Below are positions 1,477 through 57,500 of a DNA stretch of 64,000 nucleotides, in pieces. The notes under the pieces were generated by a model, which saw nothing but the letters and a program-made list of their open reading frames with translations, made no database searches and was not told the origin of the DNA. Every line of letters starts with the position of its first letter. Positions within the stretch are counted from its first letter, which is position 1. The stretch is taken from the IMG/VR virus record IMGVR_UViG_3300046535_002009, positions 1 to 64,000 of that record. One strand, written 5' to 3'. The stretch comes from a virus. A program made the translations under genes and the position numbers.

Positions 1477-1829
1477 AGCTCCCTCGTCTGGAGGAGAGCG
1501 GGCCGCAGGAAGGGCTGGGCGGGGGTGCCCGGGTGGCGCACGTAGGCGACGGGGTGGGCGGCGCCCTCCCAGAAGAGGGCCTTCGCGGTGCTGGGCCGGA
1601 TGATGTGGGGTCCGGTGCCGTATTCGACGTAGCGCCAGTAGGTGACGTCGGTGCCGATGCGGGCGGTGAGGCCGACGGTGTCGTGGAAGATGCTGGCCTT
1701 GAGGCGGCCGTTGCGGACGGGCGCGAGTGCGCGGGCGTCTTCGGCGATGGCGGCGGCGATCTTGTCGAGGGCGGCGTGGAGGGCGGCGTCGAGGTGCTGG
1801 TCCGCGCTCGGGTCGAGCCTGATCGTCAT
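1473..1829 (-). CDS. HK97 gp10-like neck protein
   Basis: APVRNGRLKASI, YVEYGT, AQPFLRPAL motifs; start re-picked at MTIRLD. Confidence 0.85.
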   Translation of the reverse strand: MTIRLDPSADQHLDAALHAALDKIAAAIAEDARALAPVRNGRLKASIFHDTVGLTARIGTDVTYWRYVEYGTGPHIIRPSTAKALFWEGAAHPVAYVRHPGTPAQPFLRPALLQTREL

Positions 1830-1903
1830 CGCCGCCGTCCTCTCCGGATCTCGTGGCGTGTGCTGGGTGGCCGCCCGGTCTCCCCGGGGCTGTGGCCGGT
1901 GCT

Positions 1904-2239
1904 TCAGTTGATGAGGGTGAGGTCCACGCGGAGCTCGGCTGTGAACCCGATCGCGGCGGGCTGGTTGACCTGGTCGACGCTGTAGATGCGGCCCGTGCTC
2001 TCGTCGCGGATTCGGTCGTCCTCGGTGACGTCGGTTCCGGCCGGGAGGCGGGCGATGGTGGTCCGGATGACGCGGGGTGTGCCGGATGCCGGGCCGCGGC
2101 TGGTGCGGGTCTGCTCGATCAGCGAGGCGGGGATGTTGGTCTGGGCGTCGGTGCCCGCCTCGGTGTCGCTGTCTTCGGCATCGCCGAACAGGGACACGCC
2201 ACCTCCACGCAGGACGGTGACGCGGGTGGTGGCGATCAC
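1904..2239 (-). CDS. Head closure (stopper) protein
   Basis: DVTEDDRIRD...YSVDQV pattern; synteny; GTG start overlaps upstream stop. Confidence 0.65.
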   Translation of the reverse strand: MIATTRVTVLRGGGVSLFGDAEDSDTEAGTDAQTNIPASLIEQTRTSRGPASGTPRVIRTTIARLPAGTDVTEDDRIRDESTGRIYSVDQVNQPAAIGFTAELRVDLTLIN

Positions 2240-2688
2240 GAGGTGTTCCCCATCTGCTGCCAGTTCTGGATCTCGTCGACGGACTCGCTGAGCGGGTTGA
2301 CGCCGAACCAGCCGACGCCGCCGTCGACGAACGGCGAGCGGATGTGGACGGTCCGGCTGCGCCGCCAGGAGCAGCGCTGGAGGGCGCGGCCGGCCATGGG
2401 GGCGAGGACGATCGCGTCGCCGGTGAAGTTGGCGCTGGTGCCGTCCTGCGTCTGGGCGGTGACGTCCATGCGCTGGGCGAGGCCGGGCTGTCCGGCGGCC
2501 CACGCGGCTTGGTAGGCGACGGCCTTGCCGAGCCAGTACAGGTCGCGGACGCGCAGCCGGTCGGTGTCGGTGAAGATGCGGCCGGAGATGACTTCGATGT
2601 CGGCCTGGGCCTGGGCGAGTTGCTGGTCGGTGACCTCGACACCGGTGGTGGTGAGGACGTCGGCGGCGCTCGCCCAGGCGTCGACCAT
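2236..2688 (-). CDS. Head-tail adaptor protein
   Basis: Synteny after capsid; AVAYQAAW helix. Confidence 0.65.
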   Translation of the reverse strand: MVDAWASAADVLTTTGVEVTDQQLAQAQADIEVISGRIFTDTDRLRVRDLYWLGKAVAYQAAWAAGQPGLAQRMDVTAQTQDGTSANFTGDAIVLAPMAGRALQRCSWRRSRTVHIRSPFVDGGVGWFGVNPLSESVDEIQNWQQMGNTS

Positions 2689-3110
2689 CAGTCCTCGCCG
2701 CCCTCGGGCGGGTTGAGGGTGCTGCGCGGGGTGGTGGTGGAGGCGGTGTCGTGGTCGATGGAGGAGGCGACGACGGGGACCGTGTAGGTGAGGACGACGG
2801 AGCGGCCGTCGGGGAGGTCGGTGGCGCCTTCGAAGACGATGTCGCCGTGCGGGTGCAGGCCGCGCTGGATCGCCTCCTGGGCGGCGGCGGCCTTATTCGC
2901 GGTGTGGGCGGTGTCGGAGATGTCGTTGTCGGCGCGGCCGAGGAGGACGAACTCCTTGACGTGGGTGAGGCCTTCGGAACCGTCCGGGGAGCGCTTGTCG
3001 ACCTCGGCCTCGTGGTGGCCGGCCCGGGCGGGGAACTCGGCGGCGCGGGTGGCGGCCGGGGCCGCCGGGGCCTGAGCCCCGGCGGTCGCGTTGGCCTTGC
3101 TCGCGGCCAT
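2688..3110 (-). CDS. Hypothetical virion protein
   Basis: TGATG coupling to capsid stop; MAASKANAT... Confidence 0.65.
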   Translation of the reverse strand: MAASKANATAGAQAPAAPAATRAAEFPARAGHHEAEVDKRSPDGSEGLTHVKEFVLLGRADNDISDTAHTANKAAAAQEAIQRGLHPHGDIVFEGATDLPDGRSVVLTYTVPVVASSIDHDTASTTTPRSTLNPPEGGED

Positions 3111-4027
3111 CAGGAGCCGGAGTTGTTCTCGACGATGCAGGCGCCGGCCGGGTGGCCGTAGGCGAAGCCGCGGCGGGAGCGCATCTTGAGCAGGGACTCG
3201 TCGGTGAGGGCGCTCGTGCCGTCCTTGCCGTCGATGAAGATGGACTCGGGGCCGGAGCGGACACCGAGGAGCATCAGCGACGGGTGGACGAAGAGGATCA
3301 GCGGGTTGCCGCCCGGGCGGGAGGACGCGGTCGCGGAGGTGCGGGCGCCCAGGGACCACTTGACCTGGTGGCCGAAGATGGTCGGCGGCGTGCCGGCCAG
3401 GCCCTCGACGAAGATGGGCTCGCCCTGCAGGTCCTTGACGTTGCGGAGCTTGGCCCGGAAGGACGGGTGCGCGACGGCGATGAGCTCGGACGGGTCGAAG
3501 TAGTCGCCGGACTCGACCTTGGACAGGCCGTTGGACAGCACGTCGTAGGTGATGCCGCCGGTGCCGCACTGGGTGATGTTGGAGCCGCCGGTGTAGCCGA
3601 GGCCGCTGTCGGTCTGGGAGAGCAGGTAGTACACCGACTTGAAGGGGACTCCGGTGCCCGGGGCGCCGGTGACGCCGAAGGAGGCGTTGTCGAGGATCTT
3701 GGCGTAGCTCGTCGACCAGTCGGTCATCTTGACCTTGATGATGTCGGCGAGGGAGTCGTCGATGTCCTCCTCGGCGATGCGGATCGCCTTGCCGAACTTC
3801 TTCGCGGTCAGGACCACGTCGTCGTTGGTGTTGGAGTCCTCGCCGTACGCGCCGCCCTTGTCGACGACGTCGACGTCCATGCCGGCGGACCGCGGCGTGG
3901 AGCGGGAGTTGCTGGCCATCGGGATGCGGGAGGCGACCGCCTCGACGACCGAGTTCTGCTGGATACGGGTGATGACCTCGGAGCCGAACTCCTCGGGGAT
4001 CCACGCCTCGAACGTTTCGCGTGCCAT
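3110..4027 (-). CDS. Major capsid protein (HK97 fold)
   Basis: WIPEEFGSEVI, VVLTAKKFGKAIRIAEEDIDDS, KLRNVKDLQGEPIF motifs. Confidence 0.92.
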   Translation of the reverse strand: MARETFEAWIPEEFGSEVITRIQQNSVVEAVASRIPMASNSRSTPRSAGMDVDVVDKGGAYGEDSNTNDDVVLTAKKFGKAIRIAEEDIDDSLADIIKVKMTDWSTSYAKILDNASFGVTGAPGTGVPFKSVYYLLSQTDSGLGYTGGSNITQCGTGGITYDVLSNGLSKVESGDYFDPSELIAVAHPSFRAKLRNVKDLQGEPIFVEGLAGTPPTIFGHQVKWSLGARTSATASSRPGGNPLILFVHPSLMLLGVRSGPESIFIDGKDGTSALTDESLLKMRSRRGFAYGHPAGACIVENNSGS

Positions 4028-10836: not shown

Positions 10837-12090
10837 CTACCTCGCGGCCGTGAAGTCGTGGGCCTCACCAGTGCTGGCGAGGACGGGCACGGTGCCGGTG
10901 TGCTGCTGGTATCTGCGGCAGATGACGTCGACGTACCGTGCGTCGAGCTCCACCACCCGCGCGGTGCGGCCGATGGTGTGGGCGGCGATGAGCGTGGAGC
11001 CCGAGCCGCCGAACGGTTCGTAGACCAGGCCGCCGGGGCGGCAGGAGTTCCGCAGGCCGGCGGCGACCAGCTCGACCGGCTTCGACGTCGGATGGGTGTC
11101 GTTGCGGGCGGGCTTGTCGACCTCGAAGACGGTGGTCTGGGCGTTGTCGCCGTGCCAGCGGTTGCCACCGCGGCCGAGCCGGCCGGACCCGGCGGGGGCG
11201 TCCGTGAACCCGTACAGGATCGGCTCGTGCCGGTAGTGGTAGTCGGAGCGGCCGAGGACCATCGTGTTCTTGACCCAGATTAGGTTCTGCCGGAACAGCC
11301 ATCCGGCGGCGCGGAACGCGGCTTCGAAGGTCGCGCGGGCGGTGTCGGCGTGCGCGACGTACACCGGGGCGCCCGGGCGCAGCGCCGCGGTGGCGACGGC
11401 GAACGCGCCGGCGAGGAGGTCCTCCAGGCCGTCGGCTCCGTCGTTCTGGATGGTGAGGGCCTGCTTCGTCTTGCCGACGTAGTCGACGCCGTAGGGCGGG
11501 TCCGTCCACATGCAGTCCGCGCGGTCGCCGTCGAGCATGTTCTCAACCGCGGTGATGTCGGTGGAGTCGCCGCACAGGAGCCGGTGCGGGCCGAGGTGCC
11601 ACAGGTCGCCCGGCCGGGTGCGGGGGTCGGCGGGGATGTCGGGGATGTCGTCGGGGTCGGTGAGCGCGGTGGGCGGCTCGTCGAGGTGGAGGAGGGCGTC
11701 GATGTCGGCCTGGGTGTAGCCGGTGCCGTCGTAGTCGCCGTCGAGGTAGGAGAGGAGCTCGGCCAGGGCGTCGTTGTCGTAGCCGCCGAGTTCGGCGGTG
11801 CGGTTGTCGGCGAGGTTGATGCGGCGGGCCGTGGAGTCGTCGCAGGTGATGATCTCGCAGCGGGCGCTGGTGTGGCCTTCGGCGGCGAGCGCCTGGAGGG
11901 TGTGGTTGCCGGCGAGGACGATGAGCGGGCCGTCAGGGATCTCGCGGGCGACGAGGGAGCGGTACTGGCCGTTGCGGCGCAGTGAGGCGCGGATCGCTTC
12001 GACGTCCCCGCGCTTGGCGTTCCCGGGGAACGGCGAGAGTTCGTCGAGCGGGACGTCGCGGGTGTGGAGGTAGGTGGCGGTGTCGGACAT
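10837..12090 (-). CDS. ParB-like N-domain fused to N4/N6 DNA methyltransferase
   Basis: LAGNHT...LADNR ParB motifs; TDPPY, HPTSKP, EPFGGSGST MTase motifs. Confidence 0.92.
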   Translation of the reverse strand: MSDTATYLHTRDVPLDELSPFPGNAKRGDVEAIRASLRRNGQYRSLVAREIPDGPLIVLAGNHTLQALAAEGHTSARCEIITCDDSTARRINLADNRTAELGGYDNDALAELLSYLDGDYDGTGYTQADIDALLHLDEPPTALTDPDDIPDIPADPRTRPGDLWHLGPHRLLCGDSTDITAVENMLDGDRADCMWTDPPYGVDYVGKTKQALTIQNDGADGLEDLLAGAFAVATAALRPGAPVYVAHADTARATFEAAFRAAGWLFRQNLIWVKNTMVLGRSDYHYRHEPILYGFTDAPAGSGRLGRGGNRWHGDNAQTTVFEVDKPARNDTHPTSKPVELVAAGLRNSCRPGGLVYEPFGGSGSTLIAAHTIGRTARVVELDARYVDVICRRYQQHTGTVPVLASTGEAHDFTAAR

Positions 12091-12197
12091 GGGTGGGCTC
12101 CCCTCGGCGGATGAGGGGCGTCATGCTGCGCCGAGAGGGGAGTTCGATTGCGAACGGACTTACCACGTGGTGGTAAGCCAGGCGCCCGCGTCAGGTG

Positions 12198-16070: not shown

Positions 16071-17660
16071 TCAGTTCTGGTGCTCCCAGGGCCATCTGGC
16101 GGAGCGGCCAGCCTCCAGGAGGGGGATCAGGCTGAAGGCCTGGTCGGTGAGGCCGCCGAAGGTGTGGCGGTTCGCGGCGCCGGAGGGACCGTGGCCGGCC
16201 TGGTACCCGGCGAGGTTCCAGGTGTAGAGCTGGACGTTCGCCGGGATCTCCTTCGTCGGGTCGCCGCCCCAGTAGCTGCCGGTGGCCTGCTCGTCGGTGA
16301 CGATGACGACGCGGTCATGGCCGCGGTAGTGCTGGCGTACGGCCGCGGCGGTTGCGGTGCCACCGAGGCTCCCGAACCGGTCGACGAGGCGGAGCACGGA
16401 GTCGCCGCGCTGGAAGGGCACGGCGGCCGAGCCGGTGCCGAACTGGACGAGGTCGGCGCTGGCGGCGCGCAGCGCCAGGGCGACGCCGAACACCGCGGCG
16501 GAGTCCGCTCGGTTGAGCTTCGTCTGCTGGCTGATGCCGTCGAACATGGAGCCGGAGCGGTCGATGAGGACGAGGGTGCGGCCGGGCAGGGACGGGACGT
16601 TGGTCAGGGAGTGGCCGAGGGCGGTCTCCAGGGCGTGGCCCCAGCGCAGGGACGGGGCGTGCTTGTAGGCGGCGAGGTACCGGAAGGGGAACTGGCGCGA
16701 GCGCCGGACCTCGGCGGGGTCGGCGATGCGGGCGCAGACCTCGGCGGCGACCTTGTCGGAGACGCCGGCCTGGTCGAAGTTCCGCAGGTTCCGCACCAGT
16801 GCCATCGTGCCCATGGCGGGGATGATGGCCTCCCATGCGGCGGCGTCCATGGGGCCCTGGAGCCAGCCGGCGAGGCGCTCCCAGGTGAAGCCGGCGCCGG
16901 CGAGGCCGCCCTCGGAGGAGACGAGGGTGGGGTCGAGGACGTAGGCACGACGGTCGGCGACCGGCAGCGCAGCGAGGGTGCGCTGCGCCTGGAGAACCGG
17001 CAGGGAGTCCGGGATGAGATCGACGCGGTTGTGCCGGGCGTCGATCGCGTGCCGGAACAGGTCGCCCTGCCACGCCTTGTCCGGGTGCGGCGCGGGGTGG
17101 GTGAGCTCCAGGACATCGGCGAAGCGGTAGCTCTTGGAGTCGCCGTCGTACTTCAGCAGCGCGCGCTCCGAGTAGAGGCGGCGGGCCGCGTCGGCGACGC
17201 CGCGCTTCACGGGCTGCGGGAGATTGCGGCCGTACCGGGAGGTCCAGTAGGCGAGGAACTCGCCGGGCTCGTCCGGGCGCTGCAGGACGGAGTTGATGAC
17301 CTGCCGGGAGTAGCCCGGGGCCTGGTGGAGGATCCGCTCGGCGGTGAACTCGGCGGCGCCGACCAGGGCCGCGGTGCGCATGTTGGCGTCGGTGCGCAGC
17401 CAGGAGAGGAAGGCGGAGGTCCAGGCGGGGTCGGTGGTGGCGAGCGTGCGGACGAGGCGCTGGAAGCGGTCGTCGCGGTCGCCGGCCTTCTCGTAGAAGG
17501 CGTCGTGGCCGACGGTGTTGGAGATGCCGAGGAGGAAGAGCTCGGACTTGGTGTCGCGGGCGTAGCCGGTGGCGCCTTCGGCGGTGCGCAGCGTCGGCCC
17601 GGTGGTGGTCACGGGCGAGGTCACGGCCGGGCGGGTGGTGGGGGTGTTGAAGCGGGACAC
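16071..17660 (-). CDS. rsr: Ro60/TROVE domain ribonucleoprotein with C-terminal vWA domain
   Basis: TAEGATGYARD, QRPDEPGEFLAY, MGTMALVRNLRN, FPFRYLAAY; vWA DRSGSM, GGT, TDEQ; GAGGGG RBS before GTG at 17660. Confidence 0.93.
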   Translation of the reverse strand: MSRFNTPTTRPAVTSPVTTTGPTLRTAEGATGYARDTKSELFLLGISNTVGHDAFYEKAGDRDDRFQRLVRTLATTDPAWTSAFLSWLRTDANMRTAALVGAAEFTAERILHQAPGYSRQVINSVLQRPDEPGEFLAYWTSRYGRNLPQPVKRGVADAARRLYSERALLKYDGDSKSYRFADVLELTHPAPHPDKAWQGDLFRHAIDARHNRVDLIPDSLPVLQAQRTLAALPVADRRAYVLDPTLVSSEGGLAGAGFTWERLAGWLQGPMDAAAWEAIIPAMGTMALVRNLRNFDQAGVSDKVAAEVCARIADPAEVRRSRQFPFRYLAAYKHAPSLRWGHALETALGHSLTNVPSLPGRTLVLIDRSGSMFDGISQQTKLNRADSAAVFGVALALRAASADLVQFGTGSAAVPFQRGDSVLRLVDRFGSLGGTATAAAVRQHYRGHDRVVIVTDEQATGSYWGGDPTKEIPANVQLYTWNLAGYQAGHGPSGAANRHTFGGLTDQAFSLIPLLEAGRSARWPWEHQN

Positions 17661-17695
17661 AGGGGACCCCTCGTTGGGGAGAGGGGAGGCAAGCT

Positions 17696-17847
17696 GGGGC
17701 GCCCGAGGTCGAGGTCGGTGACGGGCTTGCAAGACCGCTGCTCTGTCCGATTGAGCTACCTCGCCAGCGTGGCTGGCGTGGGCGGGATTCGAACCCGCAA
17801 CCCGCGGTTCCGGAAGAAGTATCCGTCGCCTGCGCACCGGGCGCCCC
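17696..17847 (-). ncRNA. yrlA: Y RNA, YrlA-like (permuted tRNA-like domain)
   Basis: Ends pair GGGGCGCCCG/CGGGCGCCCC; T arm GCGGG-TTCGAAT-CCCGC precedes a closed acceptor-like stem and then D arm TAGCTCAATCGGACAGAGC; adjacent to Ro60. Confidence 0.85.
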
Positions 17848-17857
17848 CGGTGCTTGT

Positions 17858-17933
17858 CCTCCCGAGATCAAGAGTGGGCGGTCCGGCGTAGTTTCACCAA
17901 AGAAGTAGCCGGGGTGCCCAGCGCACCGGGAGG
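17858..17933 (-). ncRNA. Short Y RNA without tRNA-like domain (YrlB-like)
   Basis: CCTCCCG/CGGGAGG terminal stem; shares GGTGCGC, TACTTC and CTYGANCTC with both neighbours. Confidence 0.72.
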
Positions 17934-25264: not shown

Positions 25265-25331
25265 TTTAGTGGGTACCCCCTTGACTGCGGATCCGCAGCA
25301 GTCCTAACGTGAATGCTGTCAGAGAGCAGCA
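25265..25331 (+). promoter_or_regulatory. Promoter/operator A
   Basis: TTGACT-N18-TAACGT; GACTG-N8-CAGCA and TGCTG-N8-CAGCA. Confidence 0.8.
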
Positions 25332-33025: not shown

Positions 33026-33934
33026 GTGTCCCGCGTCTACTTCCGCTCCCCGTCGGGCTGCGCTGAGCTCCACGGCAGCGAGCGTGCCCGGCTCGGCGGC
33101 ATCGCCAACGACATCGCCATCGGAGCGCTCCACCTCGACGACCACCACATCATCGAGCGCCTGCAGCAGCTCATCCCCGACGGGCACTTCATGACCCGCC
33201 AGCACCCCAGAGGGCCGGATTGGGCCCTCACCTGGGCCGACAGCTTCCGAACGGCCCTGCTGGTCAACTTCGGCCAGACCCCGCTCATCGCCTACCGCGG
33301 CCAGGAGGTCGACGCCTTCGACCTCGTGCTGAACAGCGCCCTGGCGCTCGGCAACGACGCGGTCAGGCTCGGGGTCCGGATTCACGGCCAGTGCGAGATC
33401 CACGGGTGGGTCGACGGCTCGAACCGGGCTTGGCTCGCCGACATCATGCAGGCCGGACTCGATGCGGGTATCTACCGGCACGGCTTCTGGCGCGAGCCGC
33501 TGCCGGGCAGTACCGCCCCGCGGCAGTGGCTGAGCCAGGGCTGGGACGAGGTGATCGAGTTCCTGCGAGCCCAGGACGACGAGCCGGTCGTCATGTCGTA
33601 CTCGGTGACTGACGGCTTCCCCAACGAGATGGTCGGCGACTGGATGCCTCCTTGGCCTGCTGACGTCCCGAAGAAGCTCGGCTGGGACGGACTGAGCGAG
33701 GAGCAGCAGACGGAGCGACAGACCCGGGCGGACGCCTGGTGGGAGCTCGACGACGCCGAGCAGTGGCGGATCTCCATGGCCGGGCTGCGGCAGCACGGCG
33801 GCGGCCGGGAGCTGCGCCCCGGCAACTGGCAGGAGTTCCGGTTCGGCCACCGCCTGTCGGTGCTGGACCTGGTGGCCCAGGACTGGGAGGACCGCCTCGC
33901 ACGGGCCCTGGGTCTTGTGGCTACCGCAAGTTGA
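33026..33934 (+). CDS. Hypothetical protein
   Basis: AGGAG RBS; long high-GC3 ORF. Confidence 0.75.
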   Translation: MSRVYFRSPSGCAELHGSERARLGGIANDIAIGALHLDDHHIIERLQQLIPDGHFMTRQHPRGPDWALTWADSFRTALLVNFGQTPLIAYRGQEVDAFDLVLNSALALGNDAVRLGVRIHGQCEIHGWVDGSNRAWLADIMQAGLDAGIYRHGFWREPLPGSTAPRQWLSQGWDEVIEFLRAQDDEPVVMSYSVTDGFPNEMVGDWMPPWPADVPKKLGWDGLSEEQQTERQTRADAWWELDDAEQWRISMAGLRQHGGGRELRPGNWQEFRFGHRLSVLDLVAQDWEDRLARALGLVATAS

Positions 33935-34032
33935 TCGGTCTCGCCTGCTGGCCAGTCGTATCCCCGAACCCGCGGCCGGCGACTCCTCGCCGGTCTACGC
34001 TGACCCCGGGTGTGCCTGGGAGGAGAGAAGTG

Positions 34033-34566
34033 ATGTACCAGATGCGTGAGGCGACGGCCTCCGACGCCAGGCCGATCGCCGAGATGGTGCGGGCCCGCTC
34101 CGCATGGCTGTCCGCGCGTGGGCTGGGCGAGTGCGCGGACATGGCCGACGAGTACGGCTCGCAGGCGGGGAACCCGGCGTTCCCCGTGTGGGTGCTGGAG
34201 CACGAGACGGACGGAGTCGTCGGCTGCACGTCCACCTTCGGCAACGAGGCGCTGCCCCCGTTCGCGTTCAGCGAGGAGGAGCGCGCCGAGCCGACGCTGT
34301 TCCTCGCCACGACGTTCACCGTGCCCAACCCGCACCGCCTCGGCCGGCTGATCGCCTGGTGGGCGCTGAACCGGGCCGCCGAACAGGGCCTCGCATGGGT
34401 TCGCCGCGGGACCGGCCAGGAGCAGCTCGCCCGCTACTACCAGGAGGCGCAGGGCTGGGAGCTGCTGCGCGTCGTGGATCGGCGCGGGGCGAAGGTCTTC
34501 TTTCTGCAGCGCGAGGCCGCTGCGGTGCCGGAGCTGGCCGACCTGATGGCCGGCCGCGGCCTGTAG
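34033..34566 (+). CDS. GNAT-fold acyltransferase
   Basis: MREATASD start, LFLATTFT..LGRLI, LARYYQEAQGW; GGAGGAG RBS. Confidence 0.75.
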   Translation: MYQMREATASDARPIAEMVRARSAWLSARGLGECADMADEYGSQAGNPAFPVWVLEHETDGVVGCTSTFGNEALPPFAFSEEERAEPTLFLATTFTVPNPHRLGRLIAWWALNRAAEQGLAWVRRGTGQEQLARYYQEAQGWELLRVVDRRGAKVFFLQREAAAVPELADLMAGRGL

Positions 34567-34568
34567 CG

Positions 34569-34617
34569 ACACGCCGAGGGCCCGCAGCAGAGCGACTGCT
34601 GCGGGCCCTCGGCGTGT
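34569..34617. terminator. Bidirectional terminator
   Basis: Perfect 22-bp stem ACACGCCGAGGGCCCGCAGCAG-AGCGA-CTGCTGCGGGCCCTCGGCGTGT between convergent genes. Confidence 0.85.
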
Positions 34618-36198
34618 TCAGCGGCGGGTGAGTGCGGAGTCCGCCAGTAGTGCGAAGACGACTTCGTGGTCGCCTGCGGCCGGGGTGCCGTCCTCCAGCC
34701 GGTCGGCGACCTGGCCGAGGCCGTCGGGGTTCAGCAGCCGGGCGTCGATCAGCGGGGAGCCGTCGGCCAGGATTCGGCGGATGCGGGGCACACCGTGGCG
34801 GCGCATGGCCTCGGTGATGATCTGCTGAAAGTTCTCCACGATCGGCGGCCGGGCGACCTGAGGCGGCATGCCCGTGCGGGCGATGATCACCCGGAGCACC
34901 TGCTTGTCCCGCCGCCATTCCAGGGGAAGCCACTCGCAGAACCGGACAAGCGCCGGATCGGTGAGCGGGTGGGCCGGCCACAGACCGTGGCGCAGGAACG
35001 CCGGGCCGCAGACCGCCTTCGCCATCAGCGCGGTCTCGGGGACGACCGCGGCCGGGGTGATCGCCGTGTCAATGTCCGGCAGGAGGGCCTGGGCGGCGGT
35101 GCCCAGCCACGGCGGAGTGCTGGTCGGCTCGAACCCTCCCCAGCCGCCGGTGTCCTCGGCCGCGGTGGTGGCCATCAGCTCGTCTCCGCCGATGCCCGTG
35201 AACACGGCCCTGATTCCCGCCTGGGAGAACCGGCCCGAGAGGGTGTCGAGGGCATCCGCGTAGATGTCCGTGGTCGGGGAGACCCATACCGGCCGACTGA
35301 ACCGGGAGACCGGCCCGTACGGCAGGTGGTCGGCGGCCTGCACGGCCAGGCTCGACCAGCCGGACGCGATGTGGTCCAGGAGCAGCTGTCGCCGATCGGA
35401 CTGCTGGGCGCCGCGTTCGGCGTCGAGGATGACCGTCCCGGCGGTCACGCCGGCCCCCTGCGGGGCGGTACGCATGGCCAGGGCGACCGTCGTGGAGTCC
35501 ATCCCGCCGGACAGCTGCACCGCGGTCTTGGAGCCGGTCCACGGCAGGCGCGTGACGGCCCGCTCCAGCAGGTCGGCGAACAGCGGGATCGGGTCCATGC
35601 CCTGCTGGAGCGACCGTGCCCGGCTGTGCTCCGCGGGAGCAGGGAACTGGATGGCGAGCGCCCCGTCCACTCCGAAGTGGGCTGTTGCCCGCTCGGTGAG
35701 GAGCCGGACGTCCTGCCAGAAGGTCGCCGCCGAGTACCGGGCGCGCAGGGCGAGGTGGCGGGTGATGGCGAGATGGTCGAGCCGGTCCGGGCGCTGCTGG
35801 TCGCGGAGGTTCATCAGGTCCCACGAGCCGTACAGGACACTGCCGTCGGCGGCCAGGTACTGCGGGGCGGTGCACGCGGTGCCGGTCGTGACCTGGACGG
35901 CCCGGCCGGGTTCGACATGGACGGCAGTCCAGTCGTCGTGGAGCTCGTGCAGCTCGCGGACGGCCTTGTCGTAGGCGCCAGCCGAGACGGTGGCCACCTC
36001 GGGCCGGCCCGGGCGCTCGCCGCTGCGCCTGGCGGACGAGGTGAACAGAGTGCGGGTGCCGTCGGTGAGGGCGGTCTGCTCGGTCAGGACGTGGCGGTAC
36101 GGCTCGATCCAGGACGTCCCGCACTGCCAGCGGCTGGCGCACCAGGCCCAGGTCCGGCCGGGGAGGTTGTCGTCGTGGGTGATGCGGAGGTCGAACAT
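34618..36198 (-). CDS. Asparagine-synthetase/lasso-cyclase-like ATP-dependent amide ligase (no N-terminal Cys)
   Basis: LSGGMDST PP-loop, FTGIGGDEL, HPLTDPALV...DKQVLR. Confidence 0.85.
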   Translation of the reverse strand: MFDLRITHDDNLPGRTWAWCASRWQCGTSWIEPYRHVLTEQTALTDGTRTLFTSSARRSGERPGRPEVATVSAGAYDKAVRELHELHDDWTAVHVEPGRAVQVTTGTACTAPQYLAADGSVLYGSWDLMNLRDQQRPDRLDHLAITRHLALRARYSAATFWQDVRLLTERATAHFGVDGALAIQFPAPAEHSRARSLQQGMDPIPLFADLLERAVTRLPWTGSKTAVQLSGGMDSTTVALAMRTAPQGAGVTAGTVILDAERGAQQSDRRQLLLDHIASGWSSLAVQAADHLPYGPVSRFSRPVWVSPTTDIYADALDTLSGRFSQAGIRAVFTGIGGDELMATTAAEDTGGWGGFEPTSTPPWLGTAAQALLPDIDTAITPAAVVPETALMAKAVCGPAFLRHGLWPAHPLTDPALVRFCEWLPLEWRRDKQVLRVIIARTGMPPQVARPPIVENFQQIITEAMRRHGVPRIRRILADGSPLIDARLLNPDGLGQVADRLEDGTPAAGDHEVVFALLADSALTRR

Positions 36199-36239
36199 CA
36201 GCTGTCGGCCCTTCGTGCGCCGGTGAGGGTGGACGCGGC

Positions 36240-36270
36240 CCGGCCGCAGCGGACGTGCCGCTGCGGCCGG
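36240..36270 (-). promoter_or_regulatory. Intercistronic hairpin after peptide gene
   Basis: CCGGCCGCAGCGG-N5-CCGCTGCGGCCGG, 13-bp perfect stem. Confidence 0.75.
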
Positions 36271-36281
36271 ACGAGGGACTG

Positions 36282-36440
36282 TCAGACAGCCGTGGTGTCG
36301 TACGTCTGGACCGAGTCGCTGGACCCGGCGATCTTCTTGTACGAGTACCGGTCGGTGGTGTCCATGACCTCGTACGCCGGCTCGTCGCCGAAGATCCGGC
36401 CGGCGGCCTCCAGCAGCATGCGCTCGTCGGTGATGATCAC
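36282..36440 (-). CDS. Putative RiPP precursor peptide (52 aa), absent from ORF track
   Basis: MIITDERMLLEAAGRIFGDEPAYEVMDTTDRYSYKKIAGSSDSVQTYDTTAV; GAAGGGA RBS; nearly all codons end in G/C. Confidence 0.78.
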   Translation of the reverse strand: MIITDERMLLEAAGRIFGDEPAYEVMDTTDRYSYKKIAGSSDSVQTYDTTAV

Positions 36441-36706
36441 GGGCCTGTTCCCTTCACCTGGGCTTGGACGGCCCCCTCGCCAGGTCGGTAAGGGGGCCCG
36501 GCACCAGCCGGTTGCCGGTGTCGGCGCCGGCCCGGGGTGTGCCTCTGGCTGGCCGGCGCACCATCAGGTAACCGCTCGGGTCGCGCGTGCGGCAGGGCTC
36601 CGAGGCCAATCTGCAAACGGCATGCAGAACACGCACACGCTGTGCGCGGCCCGTCGCTCCGGGTGTACCGTCAGGACTGTTGCCACACTCCCGAGTTGGA
36701 GGACAG

Positions 36707-38059
36707 ATGGCGGTGCCCACGGCCGGGGGCCGGGAGATCGGAGCAGTGATCCGGGGCGCCCGGGCAGAAGCCCGGATGACGCAGCAAGACCTCGGAGAGA
36801 AGTGCGGATACTCCGCGTCCACGATGAGTCGCGTCGAGGCCGGCACGCTCCGGCCGACCCCGGAGACCCTGCTGCGCATCGCCGAGGCCCTGGACCTGCC
36901 ACCGCAGCGCCTGGGCATCGTCCCGGTACCGGCGCAGCGGCGCGCCTCCCCGAGCTGCTCCCCCGCGGCCGGTCCGGCGGCTAGGGTGGCCAACGGTGTG
37001 ATGCAGGCTCAGCAGGAGGTCCCAGTGCGACGTAGAGAACTGCTGGCTGGCATGGCGGGCACCGCGGCCGCCGCCATCATCCCCACCCCCGCAGCGGCAG
37101 CAACCGCCTCGACATCGGACGACGACCTGGCCGCCGCACTGGAGCGCGCCCTGTACGCCCCGGACGCCATCGGACCGGCGCCGGCGGCCGTCGTGGAGCA
37201 GCACCTGGCCGCCGCCCGGGGCGACTTCACCGCGGCCCGCTACGGCCGCCTCGGTCAGGCCCTGCCCGGACTCATCGGCGCCGCCGAGGCCGGCCGCGAC
37301 GCATCGGCTGGCGCCGCCCGCGAGCGCGCGCACTCCACCGTCGCCCGCGCGTACGTCCTCGCGACCGAGCTCGCCGTGAAGCAGCACTCCGACATCGCCT
37401 GGGTCGCCGCCGACCGAGCGCTGGCCTCGGCCCGCGCCGGCGGCAGCCCGGTCGTGATCGGCGAGGCGGCCCGGGTGCTGGCCATCACCATGCGCCGCTC
37501 CGGACGGCCCGCCGCAGCCGTCGACCTGCTGCGCCGCACCGCCGCAGACCTTGCCGACCAGCGTGGCGCCGCACCGCAGGCTGTCGCAGCGACCCTGATG
37601 TTCACCGCGGCGTACACCGCCGCGTGCGACCGGCGCCGCAGCGACGCCCTCGACCTCATGGCCGGTGCCGACGAGGCGATCCGTCGGCTCCCGGCCGACA
37701 CGCCTGCAGCGCCGCTGTTCACCGTTGACGCGACTGCGGCGCAGCGCGACCTCTACTGGATCGGCGTGCACAACGCCCTCGGTACACCGGACGAGGGCGT
37801 GCCCTACGCCGCGCGCCTCACTGCCGTGGCGCTGCCGACCGCCGAGCGCCGCGCCCGCCTCGGCACCGACACCGCCCGCATGTGGCACCAGCTCGGCGAC
37901 CAGCGCCGCACCTTCACTGCGCTGCGCCTCGTCGAGCAGGCCGCCCCGGAAGAGGCGCGGCGGCCGGCGCTGCGCGCGCTGACCGCCGACCTTCTCTACT
38001 CACCCGCCCCGCTGCCGGGGGTGAGGGAGTTCGCCCGCAGGACCGGCGCGGCCTCCTGA
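36707..38059 (+). CDS. XRE-family HTH regulator with long helical (TPR-like) C-terminus
   Basis: ARAEARMTQQDLGEKCGYSASTMSRVEAG; GGAGG RBS. Confidence 0.88.
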   Translation: MAVPTAGGREIGAVIRGARAEARMTQQDLGEKCGYSASTMSRVEAGTLRPTPETLLRIAEALDLPPQRLGIVPVPAQRRASPSCSPAAGPAARVANGVMQAQQEVPVRRRELLAGMAGTAAAAIIPTPAAAATASTSDDDLAAALERALYAPDAIGPAPAAVVEQHLAAARGDFTAARYGRLGQALPGLIGAAEAGRDASAGAARERAHSTVARAYVLATELAVKQHSDIAWVAADRALASARAGGSPVVIGEAARVLAITMRRSGRPAAAVDLLRRTAADLADQRGAAPQAVAATLMFTAAYTAACDRRRSDALDLMAGADEAIRRLPADTPAAPLFTVDATAAQRDLYWIGVHNALGTPDEGVPYAARLTAVALPTAERRARLGTDTARMWHQLGDQRRTFTALRLVEQAAPEEARRPALRALTADLLYSPAPLPGVREFARRTGAAS

Positions 38060-38952
38060 GCGCGCGGGGCCGGCACTGCCCCGAGCTCCCGATCGTCCCG
38101 TTTCGACTCGAAGTAGCGCAGCTGGGTGCTCTCGACATGGACTCGGGTGGGCGGCCAGGACTCGTGGTGCTGGTTCCGCATCGCATGCCGGAACCGCCAG
38201 CCGCCGTCCTCGTCCGGGATCGGCTCAAGGCCGTTGCATGCGACGAGGACCCGGACCGATCCGAAGACCCCCTCGTCGTGACCATCGTCCCAGCGGACGG
38301 CCGCCTCCAGGTCTACAGTTCCGGGACCGCCAGCCTCGCGTTCCTCGTGCTGGCGAATCCAGTCGGACAGCGGCCGGTATGCCTCGAACTCCAGGGTCTC
38401 GCTCTGGCCGGTCTCCAGGGTCAGTGTCAGAGGTTCCCTGGTGAAGGTGGCATGAGGGCCGTCAGGAGCGAACTGGCCAGTGACGTTCACCGTGGCGTCC
38501 GGCCCAAGGTTTTTGATCGTGAAGGAGTAGCGCAGGCCGGCAAGCACGTTGCGGTCGCGCGGCGTCCGGTAGACATGGTCCCTTTCGAGCGGCATGCCAG
38601 GCGCATTCGCGGCGATGCCGATCCGCAACGGCCTGAAATCCAGGCTCGACTGCGTGACTTGGATGTGCGGGGCACGGGCGGCGAGCCGGGCCTTGGCCGC
38701 ATCCACCGCCCCGCGCTCGGCCACGGCCAGTGCATCCTGCGCGATGCGATTCGCCTGCTCGCTCAGCTCATTGGCTTGCCTGGCGAGCTCGTTCGCGCCG
38801 TCGCTACGAGCGTTCGCCTGCTCGGCGGTGACGTTGGCGCGTTCGCTGTTCCGGTTGGCCCTCCGGGCGGTGTGGTGCTGGGCGATCGCCCAGATCCAAC
38901 TGCCCGCTGCTGCTGTCGCGGAGGCGAGGGCGATCTTGTCCGAGGTGTTCAT
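37996..38952 (-). CDS. Hypothetical protein, N-terminal TM + coiled coil
   Basis: AEQANA/ARQANE/SEQANR heptads; overlaps the XRE 3' end by 64 nt. Confidence 0.7.
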   Translation of the reverse strand: MNTSDKIALASATAAAGSWIWAIAQHHTARRANRNSERANVTAEQANARSDGANELARQANELSEQANRIAQDALAVAERGAVDAAKARLAARAPHIQVTQSSLDFRPLRIGIAANAPGMPLERDHVYRTPRDRNVLAGLRYSFTIKNLGPDATVNVTGQFAPDGPHATFTREPLTLTLETGQSETLEFEAYRPLSDWIRQHEEREAGGPGTVDLEAAVRWDDGHDEGVFGSVRVLVACNGLEPIPDEDGGWRFRHAMRNQHHESWPPTRVHVESTQLRYFESKRDDRELGAVPAPRAQEAAPVLRANSLTPGSGAGE

Positions 38953-39310: not shown

Positions 39311-39377
39311 TTTAGCGGGTACCCGCTTGACTGCCTAGGCGCAGCAGTCGTACCGTGAATGCTGTCAGAGCGCAGCA
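39311..39377 (+). promoter_or_regulatory. Promoter/operator C
   Basis: TTGACT-N18-TACCGT; GACTG-N8-CAGCA and TGCTG-N8-CAGCA; near copy of 25265-25331. Confidence 0.8.
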
Positions 39378-44723: not shown

Positions 44724-44773
44724 TTGACCTAGGTAGCGCGCACCCATACCGTTATTGCTGTCAGCGCGCAGCA
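44724..44773 (+). promoter_or_regulatory. Promoter/operator D
   Basis: TTGACC-N17-TACCGT followed by TGCTG-TCAGCGCG-CAGCA. Confidence 0.78.
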
Positions 44774-57369: not shown

Positions 57370-57500
57370 GTCGCCGCTGCTGCGTCCTTGCAGCAGTGCG
57401 AGTATGCGCCGGAGGTCCGACAGATCGCGCTCCAATATCCGTACGGAACGCGTCCGAGGTCAGCCAGCCTCGGCGGCCGCGCGGCTTAATGCCCGCGGCG

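Follow-up and report, generated by a model that had tools for sequence, protein, structure and literature searches.

A putative lasso-like peptide-cyclising cassette carried by a temperate actinobacterial phage

Canonical lasso peptide clusters encode a precursor (A), an RRE protein (B1), a leader peptidase (B2) and an asparagine-synthetase-like cyclase (C). Triculamin-type clusters (triA-triC-triT-triD) are non-canonical and lack B1 and B2 (Merrild et al. 2025, PMC12070363). Like albusnodin clusters (albA/C/B/T), they pair a precursor and an asparagine-synthetase-like macrocyclase with a GNAT N-acetyltransferase. In triculamin, the recognition sequence is predicted to bind the cyclase directly, without an RRE, the ring region is Lys-rich and the cluster includes a regulator gene. 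TriA has no leader. Rather, the core is N-terminal, a follower is C-terminal and the ring uses the alpha-amine. TriC lacks the N-terminal domain of 150-250 aa. The acetyltransferases TriT and GelT, of triculamin and gelatinamin respectively, acetylate Lys for self-resistance (PMC12070363; doi 10.64898/2026.07.03.736388; PMC13178200). Graspetides and microviridins contain side-chain Lys to Asp or Glu links, within leader-bearing precursors. These are made by ATP-grasp ligases through acyl-phosphate.

We focused on a 4-kb module in a 64,000-nucleotide stretch of DNA, here called the window (positions 1 to 64,000 of the 110-kb virus record IMGVR_UViG_3300046535_002009). The module encodes a 52-residue peptide, an asparagine-synthetase-like enzyme, an acetyltransferase and a regulator. 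The initial annotation proposed a RiPP-like cassette distinct from lasso clusters, in which a modified peptide could be the ligand of the regulator. Every sequence feature that it described is present. Its interpretation is only partly supported. The data support a conserved peptide-plus-enzyme cassette of RiPP type that is not a canonical lasso cluster. They favour a Lys-Asp macrolactam, the first chemistry named, but do not support a role in signalling. We found no description of this peptide-modifying family, which is widespread.

Features of the four-gene module

Nucleotide comparison with a Kitasatospora locus (L001; loci of the family are numbered with the prefix L) defined the extent of the mobile module. 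Window positions 33990-38052 match L001 positions 8211-4152 at 85% identity over 4073 nt, with no homology outside. Loci L002-L004 share only about 34004-36583, equating to the GNAT, ligase and peptide genes. The four genes of the module could all be assigned.

The ligase gene (34618-36198, minus strand) encodes 526 aa. The protein matches PF00733 (E 1.4e-13) and phrog_29141 (E 3e-110). The PP-loop SGGMDS (residues 230-235) and GGDE (residues 337-340) are invariant. The protein begins M-F-D, and all 23 aligned homologues begin at the same Met without a Cys. The glutaminase nucleophile is absent. The curated NCBIfam lasso cyclase model NF033535 scores 20.4 bits, against a cut-off of 525, and the albusnodin-type model NF033561 scores 30.3 bits, against a cut-off of 300. 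Unlike TriC, the enzyme is full length. By sequence, the closest solved structure is beta-lactam synthetase 1jgt (E 1.3e-7). There is no ATP-grasp gene in the module, where the PF00733 protein is the only ligase.

The 177-aa ORF at 34033-34566 (plus strand) matches phrog_38266 (E 3e-44) but has no Pfam or NCBIfam hit. An AlphaFold2 model has a pLDDT of 93.5 and all top Foldseek PDB hits are GNAT acetyltransferases (best 2oh1, E 4.5e-9, TM 0.65). The protein has an invariant Gly104/Ala108 at the beta4-alpha3 junction and a WVRRG motif. For comparison, AlbT is 178 aa and TriT is 296 aa. The gene is adjacent to the ligase in 22 other loci, in three different arrangements. A perfect 22-bp inverted repeat with a 5-nt loop (34569-34617) fills the gap between the convergent stop codons of the two genes and resembles a bidirectional terminator.

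The regulator is divergent from the peptide gene and matches phrog_5823 (E 2e-40). The ORF is open from 36587 to 38059 (plus strand), and alignment of homologues indicates a probable start at 36707. The protein has an XRE HTH (PF13560, E 2e-13). In the structural model, the HTH spans residues 8-69, a linker at 75-136 has a pLDDT below 50 and helical repeats at 138-446 form an all-helical TPR superhelix of roughly 310 aa. Regulators flank 17 of 28 actinobacterial loci divergently and belong to one superfamily by hhalign (98.8%). The proteobacterial loci lack this regulator. In the intergenic region between peptide and regulator (36441-36706), presumably containing promoters, no sigma-70 consensus was found, as expected for this GC content. 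An imperfect 24-nt inverted repeat lies at 36509-36574.

We searched for lasso B genes using profiles. No match to PF05402 (PqqD-like, B1) or PF13471 (Transglut_core3, B2) was found in the virus record. Similarly, there was no PF13471 match anywhere in three host genomes that carry the cassette. No protease or RRE recurs among the neighbours of about 60 loci.

The peptide and its predicted docking on the ligase

The 52-codon ORF (36282-36440, minus strand) starts at GTG, with GAAGGGA 8 nt upstream. Conservation of the peptide beside ligase homologues had been set as a test of the initial annotation. A homologous peptide lies directly upstream of the ligase in 26 actinobacterial loci (jackhmmer E 1e-27 to 7e-4), and each copy has its own Shine-Dalgarno site and start codon. 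Against the two closest orthologues, synonymous codon changes outnumber non-synonymous changes (10:4 and 9:4). We conclude that the ORF is a real gene. Unrelated-looking small ORFs occupy the same place in Xanthomonadales, Bradyrhizobium, Mesorhizobium, Cupriavidus, Myxococcus, a sphingomonad and Tenacibaculum. A small ORF lies directly upstream of the ligase in essentially all family loci, from at least four phyla.

Within actinobacteria the only invariant residues of the peptide are M1, F17, K36, D42 and D48. F17 lies in the leader, and the core has the pattern K36-x5-D42-x5-D48. Across at least four phyla, the only shared feature is Lys-x5-Asp near the C-terminus, found in nearly all of the peptides (K36 and D42 here). 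In a selection made blind to the motif, 39 of 48 unique conserved upstream tails carry K-x5-D and 3 carry K-x6-D, while shuffles of the same tails give 14%. Of the 6 misses, 3 are wrong frames and 3 are non-family loci. The loci are phylogenetically related, so these counts overstate independence. K-x6-D occurs in L028, L035 and L043. The distance from Lys to the C-terminus varies by locus. The residues at -1 and -2 of the Lys also vary, and are not Thr. Likewise, no YxxP leader motif is present.

A perfect 13-bp GC-rich hairpin with a 5-nt loop (36240-36270, minus strand) separates the peptide stop codon from the ligase ribosome-binding site, and resembles an attenuator or stabiliser. A hairpin of 11-16 bp, with a different sequence, occurs at the same position in at least 16 other actinobacterial loci. 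A hairpin also follows the precursor gene in canonical lasso clusters.

Presence of the GNAT tracks additional Lys residues in the peptide core. All 23 GNAT-bearing loci have at least 2 Lys in the core, compared with 1 of 5 loci without a GNAT (Fisher p 2.4e-4). In three GNAT-bearing loci, the second Lys is in the tail rather than next to the ring Lys. Lys acylation, also suggested by the initial annotation, thus gains correlative support. A canonical GNAT, an APH-type kinase and ABC exporters accompany the peptide-ligase pair in Cupriavidus or Mesorhizobium loci. ABC exporters do so in two Streptomyces loci.

To assess whether the peptide could be the substrate, we predicted its complex with the ligase, ATP and Mg. 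The complex scored 0.90 (runs 0.90, 0.82 and 0.90) while the best of three controls scored 0.01. That mark was reached by 58 of 80 solved complexes and 2 of 110 mismatched pairs. These counts hold only roughly, because our own alignments were used and small molecules were included. The runs agree in at least 44% of contacts and the partner pLDDT is at least 61. In the prediction, F17 contacts ligase residues 195-198 and 423, and peptide residues 28-38 contact the GGDE region (339-346). Residues 39-52, including D42, are placed without confidence.

Proposed chemistry and alternatives

The best interpretation of our data, to which we assign a probability of about 0.55, is that the module is a leader-dependent, protease-independent relative of lasso peptide biosynthesis, carried as a moron by a temperate phage. 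In this model, the 52-aa peptide is the substrate, and its N-terminal part, with the invariant Phe17, docks directly on the ligase, with no RRE protein. The enzyme would adenylate the side-chain carboxylate of Asp42, and the epsilon-amine of Lys36 would attack. This would give a 7-residue Lys-Asp isopeptide ring while the leader is still attached, so that no B2 peptidase is needed. The GNAT would then acylate the additional core lysine (Lys35 here). From published precedent, self-resistance is at least as likely a role for the GNAT as tailoring. The hairpin would set a high ratio of peptide to enzyme transcript, and the HTH-TPR protein would be a cassette-associated transcription regulator. 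Our analysis establishes that the genes are real, their conservation and synteny, the folds, the invariance of the motifs and the absence of B genes in the sequences searched. Conversely, the substrate relationship (supported by a controlled structure prediction), the Lys-Asp bond, acyl-CoA-dependent transfer by the GNAT and its target, and every biological role are inferred. The Lys could be conserved for recognition rather than as the nucleophile. Similarly, D48, which is not conserved outside actinobacteria, could be the true acceptor. The closest described systems are the triculamin and albusnodin clusters, which likewise combine a precursor, an asparagine-synthetase-like enzyme and a GNAT. 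Triculamin also shares the lack of B1 and B2, predicted direct binding of the recognition sequence to the enzyme, a Lys-rich ring region (the proposed ring here) and a regulator gene. The locus differs from triculamin in having a conserved C-terminal core behind a leader of roughly 30 residues. It shares with canonical lasso clusters a PF00733 enzyme with an intact PP-loop, a 7-residue spacing to an Asp acceptor and, in some family loci, ABC exporters. The proposed product chemistry is that of graspetides, but the enzyme is a PP-loop adenylating enzyme of the asparagine-synthetase fold.

An ordinary lasso peptide is possible but unlikely. This would require a trans-acting host protease, or B1/B2 pair, to remove the leader just before Lys35 or Lys36. 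The enzyme would then join the new alpha-amine to Asp42, giving an 8- or 7-residue ring. The enzyme is of the lasso cyclase superfamily and rings of 7-8 residues ending in Asp are typical. Furthermore, triculamin-like cores are Lys-rich with a PGD motif at the ring acid, and many proteobacterial peptides of this family read P-G-D. However, the lack of B1 and B2 matches in the phage, of B2 matches in three cassette-bearing host genomes and of a recurrent protease or RRE among the neighbours of about 60 loci, the lack of a conserved Thr at -2 and the low lasso cyclase score argue against this. In addition, there is no known reason for a residue at ring position 1 to be an invariant Lys across phyla. 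A different ATP-dependent reaction on the peptide is about equally doubtful. Candidates are amidation of Asp42, Asp48 or the C-terminus with free ammonia, as done by TsrC and ScdTA, nitrile formation, as done by PesC, or a link from Lys36 to Asp48 or from Lys to the C-terminus. Invariance of D48 in actinobacteria is consistent with such reactions. Conversely, K-x5-D is fixed where the distance to the C-terminus is not, D48 is not conserved more widely, the glutaminase nucleophile is absent and simple amidation does not explain an invariant Lys at fixed spacing. It is very unlikely that the small ORF is a regulatory leader peptide which, with the hairpin, controls a ligase acting on a small molecule. 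The hairpin directly follows the ORF and beta-lactam synthetase does act on a small molecule. However, the amino acid conservation, the excess of synonymous changes, the K-x5-D motif in otherwise unrelated peptides and the confident interface prediction all oppose this. There is no small-molecule pathway gene nearby.

A peptide-signalling system of RRNPP or arbitrium type is also unlikely. Here, the modified peptide would be exported, re-enter or be sensed, and bind the TPR domain of the regulator to control the cassette or the choice between lysis and lysogeny. In the most far-reaching version, for which we consider the likelihood lower still, a Lys-Asp lariat, optionally acetylated, would be a diffusible signal read by the neighbouring regulator to set lysogeny or host behaviour. 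This would be a RiPP-based analogue of arbitrium in actinobacteria. The regulator has the RRNPP architecture, with its gene next to a small peptide gene, and recurs divergently beside the peptide. However, the peptides of L002 and L003 are 92% identical to that of the window, while the TPR domains of their regulators cannot be aligned with that of the window's regulator by BLASTP. BLASTP aligns only the HTH of the L002 regulator (E 0.002) and nothing of the L003 regulator (best E 0.61). Hence, peptide and receptor do not co-vary. The regulator family of the window is commoner than the ligase, and unlinked to it, in three genomes. No signal-like N-terminus is visible in the peptide sequence, and no exporter or Opp lies in the module. 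The TGCTG-N8-CAGCA operator set of the phage does not touch the cassette. In structural searches with the regulator model, the top Foldseek hit is PlcR-PapR-DNA, which is weak (E 1.4e-3), and Rap, PrgX and ComR also appear. A structural comparison (VIA) gave Z of 17-20 to TPR proteins, with Rap proteins at about 17, and generic TPR proteins score as high as Rap. The disordered linker of 60 residues is a further difference from RRNPP regulators (PlcR, Rap, PrgX, ComR and AimR).

Phage context and components of the cassette

The window is 72% GC and belongs to a 110,060-bp IMG/VR virus record judged to be about 90% complete. Encoded proteins include a portal, a large terminase, a ParB-methyltransferase, a Ro60-like RNA-binding protein, a polynucleotide kinase, a nucleotidyltransferase and an HNH protein. 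A large serine recombinase lies at 84.5 kb. Hence, the source is a temperate actinophage. The closest relatives of the cassette genes are in Kitasatospora and Streptomyces. A search for sequencing runs containing this DNA listed no RNA run. The only runs listed were rhizosphere metagenome DNA.

Every element described in the initial annotation is present, and the observation therefore stands. The peptide gene (36282-36440, minus strand) has a GTG start codon with GAAGGGA 8 nt upstream. A hairpin with perfect 13-bp arms is found at 36240-36270. The ligase (34618-36198, minus strand; 526 aa) matches PF00733, contains SGGMDS and GGDE motifs, and has no Cys after Met1. A perfect 22-bp, terminator-like inverted repeat (34569-34617) lies exactly between the convergent stop codons of the ligase gene and a 177-aa ORF (34033-34566, plus strand). 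The Pfam and NCBIfam libraries do not recognise the latter. However, it is confidently predicted to adopt a GNAT fold (pLDDT 93.5) and all top PDB matches are acetyltransferases. The divergent regulator is an XRE-HTH protein with a long helical domain. PADLOC returned no defence system hit for the ligase, the GNAT-fold protein or the ORFs flanking the module, and only generic HTH hits for the regulator.

Conservation of the peptide and ligase pair

To determine if the peptide is a genuine gene, we retrieved 79 loci encoding ligase relatives from species-representative genomes. Using tblastn, and then jackhmmer, we found a homologue of the peptide immediately upstream of the ligase, on the same strand, in 26 actinobacterial loci. 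The ligases at these loci are only 33-78% identical to that in the window. Each peptide copy has a start codon preceded by a strong Shine-Dalgarno sequence, giving products of 37-60 aa. Against the closest orthologues, synonymous codon differences outnumber non-synonymous ones. The alignment has five invariant positions: M1, F17, K36, D42 and D48. We conclude that the peptide is a real, conserved gene. A GC-rich stem of 11-16 bp follows the peptide stop codon in at least 16 other actinobacterial loci, with a different sequence each time. This fits the attenuator or stabiliser hairpins common after RiPP precursor genes.

The pair extends far beyond actinobacteria. Ligase relatives with about 24-31% identity occur in Xanthomonadales, Bradyrhizobium, Mesorhizobium, Cupriavidus, Myxococcus, a sphingomonad and Tenacibaculum. 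Each is also preceded by a small ORF. ORFs in the loci were clustered with a GC1>GC2 filter to exclude antisense shadow ORFs. These peptides look unrelated to the actinobacterial ones. However, nearly all contain Lys-x5-Asp within the last 30 residues or so, usually with Gly, Asn or Ser before the Asp. We then selected upstream ORFs without reference to the motif, by cross-locus similarity only. Of 48 unique tails, 39 have K-x5-D and 3 have K-x6-D, compared to 14% in shuffles of the same tails. Of the six misses, three are wrong-frame picks and three are loci outside the family. The loci are related and so this is not a clean probability. Nevertheless, a fixed Lys-to-Asp spacing is the only thing that these peptides share.

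The family is not small. A profile search of 1.84 billion representatives gave 492 clusters, at 50% identity, with E<=1e-30. In addition, the family occurs in 22 of 301 sampled Streptomycetaceae genomes and spans at least four phyla. A scan of IMG/VR found the ligase on only one further viral contig (locus L080, from a 72.8 kb UViG). Here, at about 1700-3481, a 35% identical ligase is again preceded by a peptide with K-x5-D-x5-D, and no GNAT was found within the DNA examined. Hence, the family is mainly chromosomal. Searches of a phage GenBank collection, by megablast with the region and tblastn with the ligase, gave no match but are uninformative, since near records may be missing from that set. 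Literature searches for an asparagine-synthetase-type Lys-Asp RiPP found no description, although most subscription journals were outside their reach, and the family appears to be undescribed. One recent survey counted about 300 uncharacterised asparagine-synthetase-like enzymes near RiPP elements (PMC13060819).

All 23 aligned ligase homologues start at the same Met and lack the Cys nucleophile of the glutaminase domain. The PP-loop and GGDE motif are invariant. Curated models place the enzyme outside of the known subfamilies. Briefly, the scores were 31 bits for asparagine synthase (cut-off 267), 20 bits for lasso cyclase (cut-off 525) and 30 bits for albusnodin-type cyclase (cut-off 300). 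The closest solved structure by sequence is beta-lactam synthetase, itself an intramolecular amide-forming relative.

To investigate whether the enzyme could take the peptide as its substrate, we predicted the complex of ligase, ATP, Mg and peptide using our own alignments. The score was 0.90 (0.90, 0.82 and 0.90 in three runs) while the best of three controls scored 0.01. In calibration of the method, the mark was reached by 58 of 80 solved complexes and 2 of 110 mismatched pairs. These counts hold only roughly here, because the alignments were our own and small molecules were included. The runs agree in at least 44% of contacts and the partner pLDDT is at least 61. The invariant F17 sits on ligase residues 195-198 and 423, whilst peptide residues 28-38 reach the GGDE region (339-346). 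Residues 39-52, including D42, are not placed with confidence. The prediction supports binding but does not show it. It parallels the published model in which the triculamin follower binds TriC directly, without an RRE (doi 10.64898/2026.07.03.736388).

The GNAT-fold protein and the regulator

The GNAT-fold gene lies next to the ligase in 22 other actinobacterial loci. Three arrangements are found: convergent, downstream on the same strand, or upstream of the peptide. This argues for a functional link rather than a fixed operon. All 23 GNAT-bearing loci have at least two Lys residues in the peptide core, while four of five GNAT-less loci have only the ring Lys (Fisher p 2.4e-4, not corrected for relatedness). 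In two actinobacterial loci without a GNAT (L053, 7661-11332; L012, 7864-11433) the cassette abuts a DnaE-type polymerase alpha subunit of about 1200 aa and a small partner gene. Among L044 (7588-9073) and L046-L048, the peptide and ligase pair is followed by an APH-family kinase and a canonical GNAT in Cupriavidus loci, while Mesorhizobium loci have the kinase. ABC exporters lie nearby, and occur in several loci. This is the usual furniture of RiPP clusters and suggests phosphorylated or acetylated variants. TriT and GelT acetylate Lys of triculamin and gelatinamin as self-resistance, and AlbT is needed for albusnodin (PMC12070363, PMC13178200). Hence, self-resistance is at least as likely here as tailoring.

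The model of the regulator (36707-38059) has an HTH, a 60-residue low-confidence linker and a TPR superhelix. The linker (residues 75-136) is predicted to be disordered and holds an RRRxLL stretch, within a twin-arginine-like RRRELLAG sequence followed by an Ala-rich stretch. It may or may not be a membrane or export segment; HTH-less homologues are annotated 'small secreted protein' by one source. The top Foldseek match, though weak, is PlcR with PapR and DNA. Rap, PrgX and ComR also appear. However, VIA-align gives Z 17-20 to Rap proteins and to unrelated TPR proteins alike. The RRNPP likeness is therefore architectural only. Using jackhmmer with the window regulator against genes of the retrieved loci, only L001, a Kitasatospora locus, was found. 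Profile-profile comparison was required to detect remote homology. This shows that divergent genes encoding 420-490 aa proteins, beside the cassette in other loci, belong to the same superfamily (98.8%, E 7e-17, full length). In HMM searches, such a gene was found divergently upstream in 17 of 28 actinobacterial loci and in none of the proteobacterial ones. Thus, the regulator is a recurrent part of the cassette.

A consensus promoter scan found nothing, as expected at 72% GC. A 25-nt direct repeat (80% identity, ending GGGTGTGCCT) lies just upstream of the GNAT start (33993-34017) and again in the intergenic region between the peptide and regulator genes (36520-36544). This could be a shared operator or chance.

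Interpretation of the cassette and its carriage by the phage

The initial annotation read these genes as a non-lasso RiPP-like cassette and proposed that the product could be the ligand of the regulator, with influence on lysis-lysogeny. This interpretation is supported in part. The RiPP-like reading is supported and can be sharpened: the most likely product is a leader-bearing peptide with a Lys36-Asp42 isopeptide ring, made by a lasso-cyclase-like enzyme, with a GNAT acting on the neighbouring Lys. The genes, their conservation and their arrangement are established by our analysis. Conversely, binding of peptide to enzyme, the ring itself, acylation and all other chemistry are inferred. If the ring is confirmed, this would define a RiPP class in which a lasso-cyclase-type enzyme closes a side-chain ring on an intact precursor. 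In turn, that would explain how such enzymes can work without an RRE or a leader peptidase.

An ordinary lasso peptide is a less satisfactory explanation. Neither PqqD (B1) nor the transglutaminase-like B2 family matches anywhere in the phage, B2 was not found in three host genomes that carry the cassette, and no protease or RRE recurs among the neighbouring genes. We infer that an invariant Lys, at a fixed distance from the acceptor Asp, is best explained if its epsilon-amine is the nucleophile. That would remove the need to create a new N-terminus. The phage-signalling extension is not supported, since several results argue against a receptor-ligand pair. The window shares the whole module, regulator included, only with L001 (85% nucleotide identity over 33990-38052, with sharp edges). 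A further three of the retrieved loci, L002-L004, share the GNAT, ligase and peptide but carry a different regulator. The TPR domains of those regulators cannot be aligned with that of the window by BLASTP, although the L002 and L003 peptides are 92% identical to the window peptide (79% for L004). Furthermore, the regulator family of the window is found in 27 of 101 genomes and, in three genomes that have both, lies on other contigs or far from the ligase.

A phage carrying the whole module with sharp borders shows that RiPP cassettes move as phage morons. It also provides a minimal four-gene system that is easy to express and test. No terminal repeats mark the module borders. The two flanking ORFs (37996-38952, minus strand, 318 aa; 33026-33934, plus strand, 302 aa) have no Pfam, NCBIfam, PHROG or PADLOC match and are not conserved beside the cassette elsewhere. 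The Ro60-like RNA-binding protein (phrog_850) and the ParB-DNA methyltransferase fusion (phrog_498/723) are encoded at 16074-17867 and 10840-12120, respectively. The sequence TGCTG-N8-CAGCA occurs four times in the window, at 25314-25331, 39360-39377, 44756-44773 and 57378-57395, against 0.04 expected. Three of the sites share the spacer TCAGAG/CG. This is a likely phage operator set and none of the sites lies in the cassette.
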